DNA from: Acidimicrobiia bacterium | GTDB lineage: Bacteria > Actinomycetota > Acidimicrobiia > Spongiisociales > UBA5794 | Assembly: GCA_029939995.1 (NCBI GenBank) | Contig: JAOZRW010000004.1 | Location: 10,831 to 74,830 of the forward strand | Reading direction: 5' to 3' | DNA length: 64,000 nt | In this document: positions 478 through 45,414 of the stretch, one piece after another | Layout: each line of letters opens with the position of its first letter | Position numbering within the stretch: position 1 is the first letter of the stretch | Notes under the pieces: generated by a model | The model's input: only the letters and a program-made list of their open reading frames with translations | The model's database searches: none | Told to the model about the DNA's origin: nothing | Position numbers and translations under genes: made by a program

Positions 478-1382
478 GCCGTCACGACCTCCGCCTTGGC
501 GGACGCGCCGTCGACGCGATAGATACCGAGCAGGTCACCGCCTACGACGAGTCGAACCAACCCGCGATCGTCGATATCGTCGTCGCCGATGAGCGCCGAC
601 GAGGGAACGGCCGCACCGTTGCGAACGCCGGGCAGATAGGCGGGATCGATCTCACGGCCCGGGATGTCGGAGAGCGCCGTCGACGGGTCGATGATGACCT
701 CCGCGATCGTGCCCGCCGACGCCGCCGCGCTGATCTGATCGATCGTTCGCGCTTCGGCCACGTTGAGCGTGCCGTTCCGTATCCGTCGGAGACGCGTGAG
801 ATGCGCCCGCCCGCCGAGCGCCCCGGCCAGGTCGTCTGCGAGCGTCCGGACGTACGTTCCGGTGCTGCACACGACGTCGAACGACACCTCCGGGTACTCG
901 GACGGAGCGAAATCTGTGATCCGGAGCGAGGAGATGTGGACCGGACGCGCCTCGCGTTCGACGATCTCGCCGGCCCGGGCGAGTTCGTACAACCGCTTTC
1001 CATCCACCTTGCGTGCCGACACCATCGGAGGGACCTGCATGATCGTCCCGCGGAACCGTTCGGCGACTGGCCGGACCTCGTCGAGGGTGACGGGCATCGG
1101 CGAGCGGTCCAGGATCGCCCCGTCGGCATCCAGCGAGTCGGTGGCGACGCCGAACAGGGCCGTTGCCGCGTACTCCTTCTCGAAGCTCTGGACGAACCGG
1201 AGCAATCGCGTGCTCCGACCGAGGCCGAGGACCAACAGGCCGGTCGCCATCGGATCGAGCGTTCCGGCGTGACCGACCTTGCCGCCGACGATGCCGCGCA
1301 CCTTCGCCACGACGTCGTGGCTCGTCCAGCCCTTCTCCTTGTCGACGAGCAGGAACCCGTCTCCGACGCCCTGACGCTTCAT
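474..1382 (-). CDS. truB: tRNA pseudouridine-55 synthase
   Basis: ORF 474..1619. The conserved core starts at an internal Met (MKRQGVGDGFLLVDKEKGWTSHDVV...GHAGTLDPMATGLL). ATG 1382 makes an ATGA overlap with the nrnA stop. The 79 upstream codons are Arg/Pro-rich read-through. Confidence 0.9.
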   Translation of the reverse strand: MKRQGVGDGFLLVDKEKGWTSHDVVAKVRGIVGGKVGHAGTLDPMATGLLVLGLGRSTRLLRFVQSFEKEYAATALFGVATDSLDADGAILDRSPMPVTLDEVRPVAERFRGTIMQVPPMVSARKVDGKRLYELARAGEIVEREARPVHISSLRITDFAPSEYPEVSFDVVCSTGTYVRTLADDLAGALGGRAHLTRLRRIRNGTLNVAEARTIDQISAAASAGTIAEVIIDPSTALSDIPGREIDPAYLPGVRNGAAVPSSALIGDDDIDDRGLVRLVVGGDLLGIYRVDGASAKAEVVTA

Positions 1383-2350
1383 GCGAGCATGCCCAGGATC
1401 TTCGCGATCGTGTCGTCGCTCGAGAGGTCGGTCGTGAATCCGGCGGCGTTGCGATGGCCGCCCCCGCCGAACGCCGCCGCGATCGCTGCTACGTCGACGA
1501 CGCCGCGGGATCGGAGGCTGCCTTTGACGACGCCGGGTCGCATCTCCTTCAACAGGCACGCGACACCGGCTTCTCGAGCCAGGCGGAGGAGGTCGATGAG
1601 CGGATCGGCGGCCTCCCACGGCACGCTCCCGGCATCGAGATCATCCCGTCGGAGCACGGACCACACGAGCCCGGCGTCTGCTTCGAGCCTGGCGCGTCCG
1701 AGCACGCGAGCGACGACGGCGAAGTAGCCGAACGGCGCTTCCTCGTAGAGGACCCGGCCGATCGGTGCCGGTTCCACACCGGCTGCGAGCAGATCGGCCG
1801 CCATCCGGTGCACGGCGGGCGTCGTCGACGAGTATTGGAAGCGCCCGGTGTCGGTCACGAGCCCGACGTACAGCGCTTCGGCGATCGGCTTGGTGATCTC
1901 CCACCCCATGCGATGCAACAGTTCGAACACGAGCTGGGCGGTTGCCGCAGCGCCCGGGTCGACGAGGCGCACGTCGCCGATGGTGCCGGGGGTGACATGG
2001 TGGTCGATCACGAGGGTCCGCCGCGCGCTCTCGATGGCGGGAGCGACCGATCCGACGCGATCCAACACCCCCGTGTCGCACACGATCGCAAGATCCAGGT
2101 TCGTGGGGAACTCCGACGGCGGGACGAGCACCGACTGATCGAGGATCCGGAACTCGTCGCCGGCGACGAACGGCTCCCCGAACGAGGCGACCGCATCCTT
2201 CCCCGCGTTTCGAGCCGCGAGGGCGAGAGCGATGATCGAGCCGAGGGCGTCCCCATCTGGACGCACGTGTCCGACCAGACCGATGCGCTTCGCCCGCAAG
2301 ATCTCGCCGATCGCTTCGTTCCATGTCTCCTCACCCGGCGGCATCGTCAC
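1379..2350 (-). CDS. nrnA: DHH/DHHA1 phosphoesterase (NrnA-type oligoribonuclease/pAp phosphatase)
   Basis: Motifs GHVRPDGDALGS, VIDHH and GGGGHRNAAG. Sits between rbfA and truB as in other Actinomycetota. Confidence 0.8.
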   Translation of the reverse strand: MTMPPGEETWNEAIGEILRAKRIGLVGHVRPDGDALGSIIALALAARNAGKDAVASFGEPFVAGDEFRILDQSVLVPPSEFPTNLDLAIVCDTGVLDRVGSVAPAIESARRTLVIDHHVTPGTIGDVRLVDPGAAATAQLVFELLHRMGWEITKPIAEALYVGLVTDTGRFQYSSTTPAVHRMAADLLAAGVEPAPIGRVLYEEAPFGYFAVVARVLGRARLEADAGLVWSVLRRDDLDAGSVPWEAADPLIDLLRLAREAGVACLLKEMRPGVVKGSLRSRGVVDVAAIAAAFGGGGHRNAAGFTTDLSSDDTIAKILGMLA

Positions 2351-3028: not shown

Positions 3029-5128
3029 TCAGGTTCTGGCGATCTCCTTGACCTCGTAGGACTCGATCGTGTCGCCTTCCTTGATGTCCTTGAAGTTCGC
3101 CAATCCGATACCGCATTCGTAACCGGTCTGGACCTGCTGCATGTCTTCCTTGAAGCGTCGCAGCGAGGCGATCCTGCCGTCGTAGACGACGACGCCGTCT
3201 CGTACCAGACGGGCTCTGGCGTTCCGGTTGATCGTTCCTTCCGTGACGTAGCAGCCGGCGACCAGGCCGTACCGGGGGGCACGGAACGTCGCCCGTACCT
3301 CGGCAACACCGAGGAACTCCTCGACCTCTTCCGGAGCGAGCTCACCGATCAGCAGCGACTCGATGTCGTCGAGCAGTTCGTAGATGATCGAGAACGTGCG
3401 GATGTCGATCCCCGCGTCCTTGGCCGCGGCGCGTGCCGATGTGTCGGGGCGGGCGTTGAACCCGTAGATCACAGCGTCGGAAGCTTCGGCGAGCATCACG
3501 TCGTTCGAGGTGATGCCGCCGACGGCGCCGTGCACGATCACGACGGAGGCGTCTTCCCTGGAGATCTTCCCGATCGCTTCGCGGATCGCCTCGAGCGATC
3601 CGTGAGCGTCTGCTTTCACGATGACGCGCAACTCGGCATGATCGGCGGTCCGGAGCGATTCGAGCAGCTGGGTGAGCCGCTCGGTCGCGTTGGGGACGGT
3701 CAGCTCCTCAGCGCGGCGTTTCGCAACCTGCTCCTCGGCCATCTTCCTGGCTGTTCGCTCGTTCTTGACGACCTGGAACATGTCGCCGGCGAGCGGCACC
3801 TCGCTCCATCCGGAGACGAGTGCGGGCGTGCTGGGGCCTGCGCTCTTGATCTGATTCCCGTGCTCGTCGAACATCGCTCTGACACGGCCGGAGACGGTGC
3901 CGCACACCATGGCGTCCCCTCTCTTCAGTGTCCCGCGCTGGACGATCACCGTTGCGAGGGGGCCGCGCCCGACCTCGAGTTGCGCCTCGACGATGGTTCC
4001 GACGGCGGGAGCGTTCGGGTTGGCGGCGAGCTCTTCGACTTCCGCCACGAGAGCCACGATCTCGAGCAGATCTTCGATCCCCGTCCCCTTGAGCGCTGAC
4101 ACCTCCACGGCCGGCACGTCGCCGCCCAGGTCCTCGACGACGATGCCGTGCTGGGTGAGAGCTCCTCGCACCGCGTACGCATCCGCCGTCTCGAGGTCCA
4201 TCTTGTTGATGGCGACCACGATCGGCACGTCGGCTGCTTTCGCATGGTTGATCGCTTCGACGGTTTGAGGCATCACGCCGTCGTTGGCCGCCACGACGAG
4301 GATGACGATGTCGGTGACCTCGGCTCCTCTGGCGCGCAGCGCGGTGAATGCTTCGTGACCCGGTGTGTCGATGAAGGTGATGAGGTTGCCGCCCGCTTCG
4401 ACCTGATAGGCGCCGATGTGCTGCGTGATTCCACCGGCCTCGCCTGCGACGACGTTCGTGGATCGAATCGTGTCGAGAAGCTGTGTCTTCCCGTGGTCGA
4501 CGTGGCCCATCACAGTGACGACTGCGGGACGGGGCTTGAGGCTCGCGGGATCGTCTTCGTACTCGACGACGAAATGGTCGGGTCCTTTGTCTTCCTCCGG
4601 GGCTTCGTCGCTTTCGGATACGAGCAGCTCGTATCCGAACTTGCGGCCGAGCGGCTCGATGGCGTCGACGGGAATCGTCCCGCCCGCCGGGACCATCTCC
4701 CCCATCTCCATCAACGCCTGGACGATGAGGACCGTCCGGACCTTGATCATCCGCGCGAGCTCGTGCGTGGTGAGACCGGGCTCGACGAGCAGCATGCTGC
4801 TCTCCTGTGCTTCCGAGTCGGACTCCGGCGCCGGCTCCGACTCCGGCTCGACCTCGAGTTCTCCCTCGGCCTCGACCTCGGGAGCGGCATCGGGTTCCGG
4901 CTCGGCCACCGCTTCGGCCGGGGCCTCTGCCGTGTCCGTTCCCCCGGGGCCGGGCGACGCGTCGCCGGTCCCCTCTTCGTACGACATCTTCACCAGAGCG
5001 ACGGCATCCTCGTCAAGACCGGACGACGCCGTCTTCACCTCGATGCCGAGTTCCCTGGCGCGCTCCAACACGTCCTTGGACTCGAAGCCCAGTTCGCGTG
5101 CGAGTTCGTAAACGCGTTGTTTCGCCAC
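3029..5128 (-). CDS. infB: Translation initiation factor IF-2
   Basis: 699 aa. N-terminus [22 protein letters not shown]-domain [17 protein letters not shown] / DTPGHEAF / NKMD. Confidence 0.97.
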
Positions 5129-8701: not shown

Positions 8702-10072
8702 TCAGTCGATCGTCAGGCGATAGGCCCCGGGGCCGGTCGATCCGCTGTCGGCGACGATGACGAAGAACGATCCCGTTCGACGCGCCGTGAACACGATCCT
8801 GGGGTCCGTTCCGAACAGCCCGCCGCCGGAATCGTCGTCGACCGCCTGAACGTATCCGTCGCCTTCGGGCCCGTCGATCATGAGCACCGGATCGAACGCG
8901 ATGGCGTCGACGTCGACCGTCAGCGATTGCCCCTTCCCGAGATCGACGCGGTACCAGTCGAAATCGCCCGGGTAGTCGATGTTGCCGGAGATCGTGGATT
9001 CGCGTTCGAGCACGCGCCCGTCGTCGGGGTCGTCCCACTCGACGAGATCGACGGAGGATCGCAGCCGTACGTCGCCGGTGCCGCCGAGGCTCTCGAGACG
9101 CAGCACGTACTGTCCGCGGAAGGTCACCAACTCGTCGATCTTCTCGTCGCCTCCGGTCGTGTCGTCGGCGGTGACTATCTCGAGTCCATCGATCGTGTTC
9201 AGTGTCAGCGACACATCGGCGTCGGATGATGCGGTGAAGGTCACGTTCGAGTACAGCGTCGCGTCGAACACGAAGACGAAGTCCTGCCAGACGTTCTGGA
9301 AGGTCGACGAGAACCGGTCGTTCCCGCGCCCGGTCGGGGGCAGCCGGTCCCCGAGGGCGGCGATGTCTTCCCCTGCCCTCATGCGGTCGATCTTGTCCGC
9401 GGCGTCGTCGAGCGATCCGGACAGGCCGAACTCCTCGAGGAAGCTGAAGTTCGTGATCCCGACGACGGTTCCGGTCTCGTCGACCAGCGCCCCGCCGCTC
9501 TGTCCGCCCACCACGGTGGTGTCGGACTGGAGGAACGTCCACCCTTCACCCTCCCATTCACGCGTCCGGGAGAGGATCCCTTCGGTGATCGTCGGTTGCG
9601 GGAACGATTCCGTCTCCCCCGGGTAGCCGATGAGGTACACCGGCCTGCCGAGAGGGATTCCCTCGCCGTCACCGATCGTGACCGGCGGTGGAAGATCGGA
9701 GAGGCCGGATACGTCCACGAGTGCCAGGTCCCCGAACGGGTCGAGGCCGACGACCGGCGCCCCGTCGAGTTCGGATCCGTTGGGGAACACGACGCGAACG
9801 GAGCGATAGGGCCACACGACGTGGGCCGCGGTGAGGATCGTCCCGTCGTCGATGAGGATGCCGCTTCCTCCGGATATGTCCGTATCGATCGATGCGATCG
9901 CCGGCGAGACGCGCGCGTAGATCTCCTCGGCCGTCGTCCGCTGCGCGGGGACCGTGGACGATGTCGCGTCGGATGAAGCTTCAGTGCTCGTCGACGGCGA
10001 GCCCCCGCTCGTGCAGGCGGCGGCGATGAGGGCTGTTGCGAGCATCGCCGCAAAGATCCGGATGCGGCTCAT
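8702..10072 (-). CDS. Secreted lipoprotein, trypsin-like serine protease with C-terminal pre-peptidase (PPC-like) domain
   Basis: Signal peptide plus lipobox MLATALIAAAC|TSGG. His motif TAAHVV, Ser motif GGQSGGALV. C-terminal GDFDWYRVDLGKGQSLTVDVDA beta-sandwich pattern. ATGA overlap with the ispG stop. Confidence 0.75.
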   Translation of the reverse strand: MSRIRIFAAMLATALIAAACTSGGSPSTSTEASSDATSSTVPAQRTTAEEIYARVSPAIASIDTDISGGSGILIDDGTILTAAHVVWPYRSVRVVFPNGSELDGAPVVGLDPFGDLALVDVSGLSDLPPPVTIGDGEGIPLGRPVYLIGYPGETESFPQPTITEGILSRTREWEGEGWTFLQSDTTVVGGQSGGALVDETGTVVGITNFSFLEEFGLSGSLDDAADKIDRMRAGEDIAALGDRLPPTGRGNDRFSSTFQNVWQDFVFVFDATLYSNVTFTASSDADVSLTLNTIDGLEIVTADDTTGGDEKIDELVTFRGQYVLRLESLGGTGDVRLRSSVDLVEWDDPDDGRVLERESTISGNIDYPGDFDWYRVDLGKGQSLTVDVDAIAFDPVLMIDGPEGDGYVQAVDDDSGGGLFGTDPRIVFTARRTGSFFVIVADSGSTGPGAYRLTID

Positions 10073-43442: not shown

Positions 43443-44075
43443 TCAGATCTCGTCGACCAGCTTGGCCCGCTTCTCGGCGTACTCCTCGTCGGTGAGGATG
43501 CCGTCGTTGTGGAGCTGCTTGAGGCGCTGGAGCCGTTCCGTCGCGTCGGACGGCGCCTCCACCGTCGTGTTGGTGACGGTCGAATGTCCCTGGAGTTGCA
43601 GCGAACGCTCCTCACGGACTTTGTAGAGCAGAGCGGCGAAGTCGTCCGGGTGCGGGATGTTCGAGAATCGGCTCTGACCGCCGGACCCGGCCGACTCGAC
43701 GAGGAGATCGCCGGCGCCGAGCATCCGTTCGAAGACGCTCTGGGAGAAGTTGACGTTCGTGATCCGCTCCAGCGGGATCTCGACACCCGACTTCGCGATG
43801 AGTCCGTGTCGGGTGATGAGACGCTCGGTCGTCAGCACGTATCGAGTCGTCGCCCAGCTCACGATCGGACGGACGATGAGCCAGATCGCACCGCCTACAA
43901 CGACGGCGATGAGCACCCACTCGAGCGGGTTCCACCAGTCGACGGCGATCACGAAGATGACGATCGCCATCGCCAGGATGAACCATCCGATGGGGATGAT
44001 GAGGAGTTTCCAGTGCTGTCGGAACGAGGTAACGATCTTCTCGTCGGTGGTGAGTACATCTTCAGGCCATGGCAT
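43443..44075 (-). CDS. Membrane bPH (DUF304/YdbS-like) domain protein with C-terminal SHOCT domain
   Basis: Internal ATG 44075: MPWPEDVLTTDEKIVTSFRQHWKLLIIP..., two TM helices, RYVLTTERLITRHGLIAKSGVEIPLERI; C-terminal ERLQRLKQLHNDGILTDEEYAEKRAKLVDEI (SHOCT). Confidence 0.8.
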   Translation of the reverse strand: MPWPEDVLTTDEKIVTSFRQHWKLLIIPIGWFILAMAIVIFVIAVDWWNPLEWVLIAVVVGGAIWLIVRPIVSWATTRYVLTTERLITRHGLIAKSGVEIPLERITNVNFSQSVFERMLGAGDLLVESAGSGGQSRFSNIPHPDDFAALLYKVREERSLQLQGHSTVTNTTVEAPSDATERLQRLKQLHNDGILTDEEYAEKRAKLVDEI

Positions 44076-44117
44076 GGAAGTGAGTGTACCCCACGACGGT
44101 GACGCACGGCGGACGCG

Positions 44118-44150
44118 AGAAACCCCGAGGAAGCTTTCGCCCCCTCGGGG
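44118..44150 (-). terminator. Intrinsic-terminator-like hairpin CCCCGAGGGGGC-GAAA-GCTTCCTCGGGG followed by TTTCT
   Basis: 12-bp stem (two G-U pairs) with a GAAA loop and a short T-run, read on the minus strand, 43 nt upstream of the DUF304/SHOCT ATG. Confidence 0.5.
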
Positions 44151-44421
44151 TGTCCTCGTTCCGGCGGTTCCGACCCCGGAGGGCCTTCCCCGTCGGCACG
44201 GGCGACCTTGCGATCGTCCGTTCCTCGCCGGCCGGCCGGAGCCGTCCGTGAGGTCGCCGTTCCGCTCGTTTCCGACCCGAAGGCCGTTCCCGATGGCTCC
44301 TTGCGGAGCCGACGCCGCCCCTTTCGGGGGGTGCCCGGTTGGGCGTTCCGGGAGCTCTTCCGGGCTCCCGACCGACCCTTTCGGGCCGATGTCTCTGGGC
44401 CGGTTTCCCGTCCCGTCGACA
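44118..44421 (-). ncRNA. Candidate unclassified structured RNA (leader/riboswitch or stand-alone sRNA), ~300 nt
   Basis: No credible ORF. Promoter-like element upstream, five or more hairpins (four with GNRA loops), six GGAAC motifs, and a terminator-shaped 3' end. See findings. The 5' end is only predicted. Confidence 0.45.
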
Positions 44422-44427
44422 AGTTGA

Positions 44428-44456
44428 AAATTAGACCGTTCCGTCGGCCATGTCCA
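44428..44456 (-). promoter_or_regulatory. Sigma-70-like promoter TGGACA-N17-TAATTT (minus strand)
   Basis: 5/6 match to TTGACA, 17-nt spacer and a TAnnnT -10. Lies in an unusually AT-rich patch with A-tracts just upstream. Confidence 0.45.
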
Positions 44457-44471
44457 CCCGAAACGCTGTTG

Positions 44472-44502
44472 ATTTTTCGCGCTCGAACGAGAATTTTCGC
44501 GC
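44472..44502. repeat. Two 11-nt direct repeats (A)ATTTTCGCGC spaced 20 bp apart
   Basis: ATTTTTCGCGC (44472..44482) and AATTTTCGCGC (44492..44502). On the minus strand they read GCGCGAAAAAT / GCGCGAAAATT, 16-46 nt upstream of the putative -35. Confidence 0.6.
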
Positions 44503-44519
44503 ACCTCCCCTCCCCGTCC

Positions 44520-44570
44520 CGAACCCTGGGTTCGTGACCCCGCATATGCCGTCTCGAGCCCGCGGTTCGG
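44520..44570. repeat. Intergenic repeat, solitary type-1 arm (copy C)
   Basis: CGAACCCTGGGTTCGTGACCCCGCATATGCCGTCTCGAGCCCGCGGTTCGG closely matches the reverse complement of the right arm of copy B (GCGAACCCAGGGTTCCTGACCCTGCATATGCCGTCTCCAGCCCGCGGTTC). Confidence 0.85.
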
Positions 44571-44594
44571 ACGATTCCCGTCACACCCGCCCCG

Positions 44595-44600
44595 TATAGT
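44595..44600 (+). promoter_or_regulatory. -10 box TATAGT positioned for a leaderless transcript of the RecB-like nuclease gene
   Basis: TATAGT is followed by 7 nt (GCTGCTC) and then ATG 44608. No Shine-Dalgarno. This is the usual leaderless-mRNA geometry in Actinomycetota. Confidence 0.4.
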
Positions 44601-44607
44601 GCTGCTC

Positions 44608-45414
44608 ATGTCCACCCACAGCGAAACCTCATCACCGCAATCAGCGGGTTTGACGAGCCTGTCACCGTCTCGCGCCTCCGACTTCAAACGCTGCCCCCAG
44701 CTGTTCAAGTTCAGCGCCATCGACCGCATCCCCACCGAGCCGACCGTCTATCAGGCACGGGGCACGACCGCTCACCTCGCCCTCGAACGCCTCTTCGATC
44801 TGCCCGGCCACGAGCGCACGCCGGAGCACCTCGCCGAGTTGTTCGCCGCCGCGTGGAGCGAGCTGGCACCCGTCGACTACCCGGACCTCTTCCCCGATGC
44901 CGGGAGTGAGCGGGCGTGGCTCACCGACAGCCTCGACGTCCTCTCCAACTACTTCCTCGTCGAAGATCCGACCCGGGTCGAACCGCTCGCCCGAGAGCTC
45001 GACATGACACAGGCCGTGGGAGACATGACGATCCGGGGCATCCTCGACCGCATGGAAGAAACGGACGAAGGGCTCGTGATCACCGACTACAAGACGGGGA
45101 AGGCCCCGCCGGAGCGGTACGCGATGAGCGCCTTCTTCGCCTTGAAGATCTACGCCCTGCTGATCCGCATCCGGGAAGGGCGAACACCGGACGTGCTGAA
45201 GCTCATGTATCTGACCGGGCCCACCGTGTACACGATCCCCGTCACCGACGCCCAACTCGACGCGATGCAGCGCCAGCTCGAAGCGCTGTGGACCGCCATC
45301 GAGCGTGCGATCGAGACCGGGAGGTTCCCCACGCGTACGGGCGTGCTGTGCGACTACTGCTCGTACCGCGACATCTGCCCCGCGTTCGCCCAGGACGACG
45401 GAGGACTCCCCTGA
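44608..45414 (+). CDS. PD-(D/E)XK RecB-family (Cas4-like) nuclease with Cys cluster
   Basis: LSPSRASDFKRCPQLFKF..., GILDRMEETDEGLVITDYKTGKAPP (DYK nuclease motif), C-terminal CDYCSYRDICPAF. The start is ATG 44608 (leaderless geometry) or GTG 44599. Confidence 0.85.
   Translation: MSTHSETSSPQSAGLTSLSPSRASDFKRCPQLFKFSAIDRIPTEPTVYQARGTTAHLALERLFDLPGHERTPEHLAELFAAAWSELAPVDYPDLFPDAGSERAWLTDSLDVLSNYFLVEDPTRVEPLARELDMTQAVGDMTIRGILDRMEETDEGLVITDYKTGKAPPERYAMSAFFALKIYALLIRIREGRTPDVLKLMYLTGPTVYTIPVTDAQLDAMQRQLEALWTAIERAIETGRFPTRTGVLCDYCSYRDICPAFAQDDGGLP

Follow-up and report, generated by a model that had tools for sequence, protein, structure and literature searches.

A conserved structured RNA next to a bPH/SHOCT membrane-protein gene of Acidimicrobiia, and sibling RNAs that share its promoter element and terminal hairpin

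In a 64,000-nucleotide (nt) stretch of DNA from a bacterium of the class Acidimicrobiia (assembly GCA_029939995.1, contig JAOZRW010000004.1, positions 10,831 to 74,830; hereafter, the window, by which all coordinates are counted), a gene for a membrane protein with bPH_2 and SHOCT domains on the minus strand is separated from a gene for a PD-(D/E)XK nuclease on the plus strand by a gap of 532 nt (44076..44607), in which the public annotation (GCA_029935855.1, JAPOGU010000020.1) calls no gene. The minus strand of this gap holds a conserved structured RNA, which is found across the class Acidimicrobiia. The initial annotation, made from the letters of the window, had noted here a promoter, TGGACA-N17-TAATTT (44456..44428), four GNRA-capped hairpins, CGGCCC-GAAA-GGGTCG (44388..44373), CCCC-GAAA-GGGG (44329..44318), GGCTCC-GCAA-GGAGCC (44310..44295) and CGATC-GCAA-GGTCG (44216..44203), a further hairpin, CGGGAGC-(8 nt)-GCTCCCG (44370..44349), and a 3' stem-loop followed by TTTCT (44150..44118). 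All of these elements are present, the last stem comprising 13 base pairs (bp), or 19 bp if the pairing of the tail is included. The view that so many GNRA-capped helices betoken a folded RNA is borne out both by a hairpin density that is the unique maximum of the window and by covariation among relatives. Overlooked at that stage were helix P1, three hairpins with UUCG or UCCG caps, a four-way junction, an extension of the 3' stem (UUUCUCG with CGAGGAC) and two CGCGAAAA boxes upstream of the promoter.

The density of capped hairpins was determined by counting GNRA and UNCG loops on stems of at least 4 bp in 340-nt segments of both strands of the window. The minus strand of 44116..44460 has eight such hairpins per 340 nt, the rest of the window has at most four, and all segments that score five or more fall in the RNA region. 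Upon folding against dinucleotide shuffles, the region has a z of -3.9 on the minus strand and of -1.9 on the plus strand.

Homologous loci were collected by way of the neighbouring gene, nhmmer searches and MAFFT alignments being used throughout to handle homology. An alignment of bPH/SHOCT homologues yielded 63 loci (designated by L numbers below), nearly all labelled as Acidimicrobiia or Actinomycetota metagenome-assembled genomes. In the 54 of them that offer at least 600 nt ahead of the bPH/SHOCT gene, the upstream region was inspected over 700 nt. The 3' hairpin is present in 47 of these 54 loci, the pair of boxes likewise in 47, and both together in 45. With an alignment of close relatives as the query, nhmmer matched the RNA over its full length in 17 loci and over part of it in more than 30 others; in the window it found exactly one copy, 44433..44114 on the minus strand. 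Synteny of the RNA with the bPH/SHOCT gene is kept in most of the related loci.

The related sequences form two subfamilies, which were aligned separately. In the first (alignment A2; 17 close orthologues, mean identity 87%), the RNAalifold consensus has 99 pairs, and 98% of the cells are standard pairs; 19 pairs have changed on both sides by pair count, and 18 by RNAalifold, as compared to 8.0±2.0 in column shuffles, none of which (0/500) reaches 19, and to 2-10 when the partners were slid. In the second subfamily (alignment A5, the L030 type; 15 sequences, 72 pairs), 25 pairs have changed on both sides, as compared to 10.8±2.1 in the shuffles (0/500) and to 1-9 with slid partners. The search of related genomes for covariation, which the initial annotation had proposed, has thus yielded homologous loci with compensatory changes above the controls. 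A wider alignment (A3) reveals the clean loss of the entire hairpin H13/14 in five loci (L018, L021, L023, L027 and L029), in which the GAAA loop of hairpin H2 is replaced by UUCG or CUCG, as well as swaps of GAAA loops for UUCG and, in the 3' stem of L018, of a G-C pair for C-G. The strand can be deduced from the alignment too: A2 contains invariant G.U pairs (for example, in columns 226/233, 297/308 and 298/307), and since these would be C.A on the opposite strand, the RNA is that of the minus strand.

The same alignments speak against protein coding. Single-base insertions and deletions are scattered over the region and codon periodicity is absent, which excludes a coding extension; together with the empty public gene calls, these observations uphold the earlier statement that the gap contains no credible open reading frame (ORF). 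Several public proteins of 291-336 amino acids (P0009, P0010, P0039 and P0049), homologues of the product of 43443..44075, bear N-terminal extensions rich in Arg, Gly and Pro. These extensions are translations of the RNA gene, in which ...TPRGGESFLGVSRV... corresponds to the 3' hairpin, that is, they are annotation artefacts.

Placed by the geometry of the promoter and the terminator, the ends of the RNA would delimit a transcript of about 305 nt (Table 1), with 7 nt between the -10 hexamer and the predicted 5' end. In the consensus structure, five GNRA-capped and three UNCG-capped hairpins and a four-way junction are joined by short A-rich linkers, and unpaired stretches are merely 1-4 nt long. 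The 5'-terminal helix P1, with a module core GGGAAACC at 44409..44402 of the minus strand, reads CCGG-GA-CGG-GNRA-CCG-GA-CCGG in most relatives, that is, a GNRA hairpin atop tandem G.A mismatches, and the counterpart of H3 in most relatives is CCCG-GA-GCCC-GAAA-GGGC-AA-CGGG. At the other end, the U-rich tail UUUCUCG pairs back onto CGAGGAC, so that, with the start taken as G44420, both ends of the RNA would be buried in helices, as one would expect if the RNA is a stable one.

The pentamer GGAAC occurs seven times on the minus strand of 44121..44460, the maximum of the window (0-4 elsewhere). As a binding motif or a family feature it was dropped, most relatives having 0-3 copies; the copies seem to arise where a helix ending in GG, an AA linker and a helix starting with C follow one another, and not to represent a conserved motif.

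Table 1. Features of the RNA gene, its surroundings and the sibling RNAs (window coordinates, except where a locus is named)
Feature	Position	Strand	Details
Nuclease gene, PD-(D/E)XK, 'RecB-like'	ATG 44608	+	far side of gap
Upstream box 1	44494..44501	-	CGCGAAAA; about -81..-74 from predicted start
Upstream box 2	44474..44481	-	CGCGAAAA; about -61..-54 from predicted start
Stretch between box 2 and -35	44464..44473	-	ATCAACAGCG in window; consensus ccAAccAGcg (72 units); UP-element position
-35 hexamer	44451..44456	-	TGGACA; family consensus TTGC/TGGAC; single fixed offset in 63/72 units
-10 hexamer	44428..44433	-	TAATTT; 17 nt after -35; one of two adjacent offsets in 48/72 units
RNA, about 305 nt	44116..44420	-	predicted 5' end G44420, predicted 3' end about 44116-44118 (in or after UUUCUCG)
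P1, 5'-terminal hairpin	44391..44420	-	GUCGACGG-GA-CGG-GAAA-CCG-GC-CCAGAGAC; 'GA-flanked GNRA hairpin' module
H2	44372..44389	-	UCGGCCC-GAAA-GGGUCGG; helix 3 of covariation table
H3	44348..44371	-	CGGGAGC-(8 nt)-GCUCCCG in window genome; C-G to G-C swap, columns 69/88
Four-way junction domain	44256..44344	-	closing helix around H7, H8 and H9/10; helices 6-10 of covariation table; 9 pairs changed on both sides
H7	44311..44335	-	GAAA loop
H8	44295..44310	-	GCAA loop
H9/10	44266..44293	-	UUCG loop
H11	44224..44253	-	UCCG loop in window, UUCG in relatives; 3 pairs changed on both sides
H12	44198..44221	-	ACGG-A-CGAUC-GCAA-GGUCG-C-CCGU; 3 pairs changed on both sides
H13/14	44161..44196	-	dispensable; entirely missing in L018, L021, L023, L027, L029
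3' hairpin/terminator	44116..44158	-	CGAGGAC-A-CCCCGAGGGGGC-GAAA-GCUUCCUCGGGG-U-UUCUCG
-10 hexamer of bPH/SHOCT gene	44083..44088	-	TACACT; 7 nt before ATG 44075; downstream boundary of RNA gene
bPH_2 + SHOCT membrane-protein gene	43443..44075	-	Pfam E = 9e-20 and 2e-8; context, outside RNA
Sibling RNA#1	L030:1465-1890; L025:1575-1997; L031:1349-1769; L041:1967-2393; L002:1343-1786; L019:1471-1911
Boxes of third RNA	L173, reverse-complement position 9033; L102, reverse-complement position 4078	-

The initial annotation had credited the RNA with a promoter and a terminator of its own, and the geometry of both is conserved in the relatives. The pair CGCGAAAA-N12-CGCGAAAA occurs once in the 64 kb, with 0 expected, and keeps a constant offset across 72 RNA units from the related loci. 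The two boxes are two helical turns apart, centred at about -57 and -77, distances that belong to the zone of UP elements and class-I activators. Over the 72 units the consensus is CGCGAAAact-N-CGCGAAAAccAAccAGcg-N-TTGc-N17-TAnnTT, with the -35 and -10 hexamers, a spacer within 16-18 nt and the conserved position that mark a promoter of the sigma-70/sigma-A type. At the 3' end, a G+C-rich hairpin stands directly before UUUCU, as in intrinsic terminators. When metagenomes were scanned with the box pair, the matches listed were mostly chance ones in unrelated low-GC DNA, just L102, L109, L155 and L173 among them being relevant. Five metagenome contigs (L092, L099, L138, L140 and L157) contain tandem arrays of CGCGAAAA-containing repeats with periods of 10-20 nt; these arrays, on contigs of 30-58% G+C, look unrelated to the promoter of Acidimicrobiia.

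The body of the RNA changes greatly between the subfamilies, the only universal features being a 5' module and the 3' hairpin. The 5' module consists of a stem, a purine-rich internal loop (AGA/GAA or GA/GA) and GGG-GNRA-CCC; nearly all variants of the family have its core, GGGNRACY, at the 5' end of the RNA, in one to five copies arranged in tandem every 24-26 nt, against a background of 0.12 per 520 nt. The 3' hairpin is almost uniform in sequence across the family; in that of the second subfamily, 13 of the 16 pairs never vary whereas every other helix covaries, which argues that the sequence of this hairpin, beyond its pairing, is under selection.

These ends are not confined to one RNA. 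In many loci, among them those of the close relatives L019 and L002, a sibling of about 420 nt, RNA#1, is encoded upstream of the present RNA on the same strand; it shares the double-box promoter unit, and its body is unrelated. Its 5' hairpin, read by eye, is CUC-GAA-GGGC-GAAA-GCCC-GGA-GAG, again a GNRA cap over a purine-rich internal loop, its 3' end is formed by a related hairpin, GAACCCCGAGAGGGC...GCUUCCUCGGGGUUUCU, and its conserved blocks include GAGGAGGAGCCCAGCCUUCGAGAG and ACCGGGAAACCGGG. What follows the siblings is, in L030, a convergent lipoprotein-like ORF and, in L033, L034, L041, L043, L052 and others, directly the next RNA gene. L102 and L173 contain a third RNA, some 110 nt long, which also stands behind the box promoter and has a 3' hairpin of this type. 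In L173, this short RNA is followed immediately by another box and a module-rich RNA, an arrangement that suggests tandem clusters of such small RNA (sRNA) genes. In the most distant box-bearing bPH/SHOCT loci (L055:2290-2950 and L056:2343-3000), the RNA measures about 600 nt, abounds in UUCG hairpins and has another hairpin (GAGUCCCGAGAGGGCCGCAAGGCUCACUCGGGACUUUCUGUUUU) at its end.

Neither the RNA nor its siblings could be assigned to a described family. In the comparison with Rfam 15 (4227 covariance models; cmscan at the gathering threshold for the window and 20 related loci, with a permissive scan of the gap), which the initial annotation had recommended, no family was matched in the window or in the relatives. 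In the gap, at E values up to 10, only Transposase-2 (19.3 bits versus 42.7) and P35 (17.8 versus 70) were listed, and a permissive scan of 10 loci gave no recurring match; the sibling RNAs, scanned in the same 20 and 10 loci, matched no Rfam model either. The whole 64-kb window is equally devoid of matches at the gathering score, ARAGORN finds no tRNA or tmRNA gene in it, and neither a second copy of the RNA nor a copy of RNA#1 was found within it. The locus is not mobile: the RNA has no match in the plasmid, phage and viral-contig collections searched. Other neighbours include UvrD-like helicase-nucleases and a TRAM methyltransferase. The nuclease gene, too, looks leaderless, TATAGT being followed after 7 nt by ATG 44608 (44595..44610, plus strand); because of this hexamer and spacing, the start would be at this ATG and not at the upstream GTG 44599, in agreement with the public call of a 268-amino-acid protein.

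The interpretation that we favour, and consider probable, is that the locus is a gene in its own right, whose product, a stable and highly structured non-coding RNA about 305 nt in length, acts in trans, probably by binding protein. Transcription would start from the sigma-A-type promoter TGGACA-N17-TAATTT behind the two phased CGCGAAAA boxes, as suggested by the conserved geometry, and would end at the long G+C-rich hairpin followed by UUUCU. The fold, as covariation shows, comprises a 5' hairpin that has tandem G.A mismatches beneath its GNRA loop, a series of hairpins with tetraloop caps, a four-way junction and the 3' hairpin. The role of the RNA in trans, the least certain step of this scheme, may tentatively be envisaged as that of a scaffold or decoy that binds protein: the recognition handles would be the 5' module and the 3' hairpin of invariant sequence, common to a sibling with an unrelated body, and the body itself would be a modular array gaining and losing hairpins. 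This function appears the most likely because the shared, sequence-constrained ends resemble such handles, because the tetraloop-capped hairpins that make up the body behave as exchangeable units of an array, and because the copy number of the 5' module varies like that of the binding modules in sponge RNAs.

A bolder extension, which we put forward with considerable reserve, is that the RNA is part of an unrecognised sRNA system of Acidimicrobiia, comprising at least 2-3 families with unrelated bodies that share the promoter element, the plan of the 5' hairpin and the invariant 3' hairpin, their ends serving as handles for a common partner. Candidates for this partner would be a stabiliser, an RNA chaperone specific to the class, or a target resembling RNA polymerase. 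If so, the system would take the place that is held elsewhere by systems of the Hfq/ProQ or the 6S/Ms1 type.

Several observations weigh against the reading as a stand-alone RNA acting in trans. The structures of A2 and A5 were derived from the same alignments that were used to test them. A generic scan of the E. coli type lists neither the promoter, which has 8 of 12 matches with a cut-off of 9/12, nor the terminator, which has 4 T in 8 where at least 5 are demanded, so that both signals rest on conservation; such misses are common in high-G+C Actinomycetota. The 5' and 3' ends of the transcript are those predicted from the geometry of the promoter and the terminator. The loops are generic GNRA and UUCG caps with no recognisable binding motif. 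Finally, the position of the RNA, just upstream of the bPH/SHOCT gene and co-directional with it, is very persistent, and this adjacency could reflect coupling in cis, for instance, read-through or promoter occlusion.

This last point bears on the alternative that the RNA is a cis-regulatory leader, sensing a ligand or a protein and thereby controlling read-through of the terminator into the bPH/SHOCT gene. The initial annotation had left the choice between a leader and a stand-alone sRNA undecided; the second option has stood, and the first, be it a riboswitch or an attenuator, now appears unlikely. Like such leaders, the RNA precedes the gene immediately and on the same strand in most loci, and ends in a hairpin with a U-tract, at a median of 69 nt before the ATG across the related loci. 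In the window-type subfamily, moreover, the 3' strand of the terminator has a look-alike in H14 (GCCCUCCGGGGU; CCUCUCGGGG in relatives), with which the 5' strand of the terminator could, in principle, pair. However, no conserved antiterminator or other alternative pairing was found: folding of the nascent transcript gave no defined antiterminator (best partner probability, 0.4), H13/14 is missing in the five loci named above, and the second subfamily has no counterpart of it. The gene, besides, seems to be served by a promoter of its own. In 58 of 62 loci, 6-7 nt separate a TANNNT hexamer from the bPH/SHOCT ATG, the hexamer lying just upstream of the conserved start MPWPED; other TANNNT matches in the last 40 nt before the ATG number four in all. 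In actinobacterial promoters, a hexamer at this distance is the mark of leaderless mRNAs, in which the A of the ATG is the first nucleotide. As it is kept also in L059 and L060, both of which have no such RNA upstream, the bPH/SHOCT gene is likely to start from its own promoter and to have a leaderless mRNA, of which the RNA would not be the 5' untranslated region; this would also explain why, as had been noted earlier, the ATG is preceded by no Shine-Dalgarno sequence. Furthermore, no co-directional ORF follows the siblings that have this terminator, and in L054 the RNA (1100-1810, minus strand) is divergent from the nuclease gene and located away from the bPH gene. In that locus, the nuclease gene is followed directly by the bPH/SHOCT gene; judging from this order, it is with the nuclease side of the gap that the RNA remains upon a change of arrangement.

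Comparably improbable, in our estimate, is an RNA-only assembly or RNA-centred machine of the kind represented by ROOL, GOLLD, OLE and raiA, in which the GNRA and tandem G.A loops would make tetraloop-receptor contacts, be it inside one molecule or from one molecule to another. The wealth of capped hairpins, the A-rich linkers and the four-way junction would suit this possibility, as would the conserved position beside a membrane-protein gene, OLE RNA likewise keeping its position next to oapA; raiA RNA, too, reportedly persists next to one gene despite having its own transcription unit. These RNAs and the one described here are alike in being multi-helical, GNRA-rich, supported by covariation, and in having a persistent neighbour gene and yet a transcription unit of their own. 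Against this, cmscan gives no match to ROOL, GOLLD, OLE or raiA, the architecture and the taxon are different, and in place of a fixed core there is a modular body so poorly conserved between the subfamilies, with entire hairpins gained and lost, that a single precise three-dimensional core is argued against.

A regulator of the 6S/Ms1 type, which would bind RNA polymerase, as holoenzyme or core, and tune the transcription capacity in the manner of Ms1 in other Actinomycetota, such as Mycobacterium and Streptomyces, seems less probable still. It has in its favour the size of about 300 nt, the independent gene with a terminator and a strong-looking conserved promoter, the occurrence in Actinomycetota and the fast divergence of sequence. 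The Ms1 family diverges so fast that its homologues have been located by synteny, not by BLAST, and show no detectable sequence similarity across genera (PMC9130861); for this reason, a lack of similarity does not exclude Ms1. Acidimicrobiia go unmentioned in that survey (PMC9130861). Identity with Ms1 was rejected on synteny and fold. The flanking genes are those for the PD-(D/E)XK nuclease and the bPH/SHOCT protein, not the HAD-IB hydrolase and the oxidoreductase that are the neighbours of Ms1 (PMC9130861), and the consensus folds of both subfamilies are strings of hairpins, with the four-way junction in the window type, rather than a rod in which a closing stem, a central bubble and a terminal stem succeed one another; nor does any 6S model of Rfam match.

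An sRNA that acts on mRNAs by base-pairing through a conserved single-stranded seed would likewise be a stand-alone transcript with a terminator, and GGAAC and other GGA-containing linkers do recur; we nevertheless regard this alternative as decidedly unlikely, given unpaired stretches of such shortness, an enrichment in GGAAC that is limited to the closest relatives of the window, and no long conserved accessible seed seen. The weakest alternative, namely, that there is no RNA and that the conservation reflects either coding sequence that lengthens the bPH/SHOCT protein at its N terminus or protein-binding repeats in the DNA, can draw on the 430-codon ORF 43443..44735, which stays open through the gap, and on the extensions annotated in some public records, but it is refuted, to the extent that we give it hardly any probability, by the covariation and the indel pattern, and it is further contradicted by the absence of third-position periodicity, the strand-specific G.U pairs and the conserved MPWPED start with a -10 hexamer just upstream.

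What the stand-alone RNA means for the class can be put as follows. Acidimicrobiia are abundant in soils, oceans and wastewater and are almost uncultured, and, as far as the Rfam scans and the literature searches could show, they have no published regulatory RNAs; the literature on non-coding RNAs of Acidimicrobiia yielded nothing relevant, which is not proof that the RNA is undescribed. The locus supplies an RNA family that is supported by covariation, with predicted ends, and a family of sibling RNAs, and the promoter element and the 3' hairpin can be used as search handles for the full set of such RNAs in Acidimicrobiia. Public annotation is corrected in that some N-terminal extensions of proteins are translated RNA. 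Should the shared ends turn out to be handles for protein, this would suggest that a major bacterial class possesses a new regulatory system made of RNA and protein.

Among the known systems, the sponges of the Csr/Rsm type (CsrB, RsmZ) share with this RNA the string of short hairpins that ends in a strong terminator and the reiteration of a hairpin module in variable number, here the 5' module with its regular spacing; their loops, however, present GGA, whereas those found here are GAAA, GCAA, GAGA, UUCG or UCCG, and we know of no CsrA-type partner in Acidimicrobiia. Taken together with the comparisons made above, the closest relatives by kind are the large orphan structured RNAs, raiA, ROOL, GOLLD and OLE, and the closest by size and taxon is Ms1. 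We rate the RNA as a new family of a known general kind, the stand-alone structured sRNA, with the twist that its siblings share with it a promoter element and a terminal hairpin.

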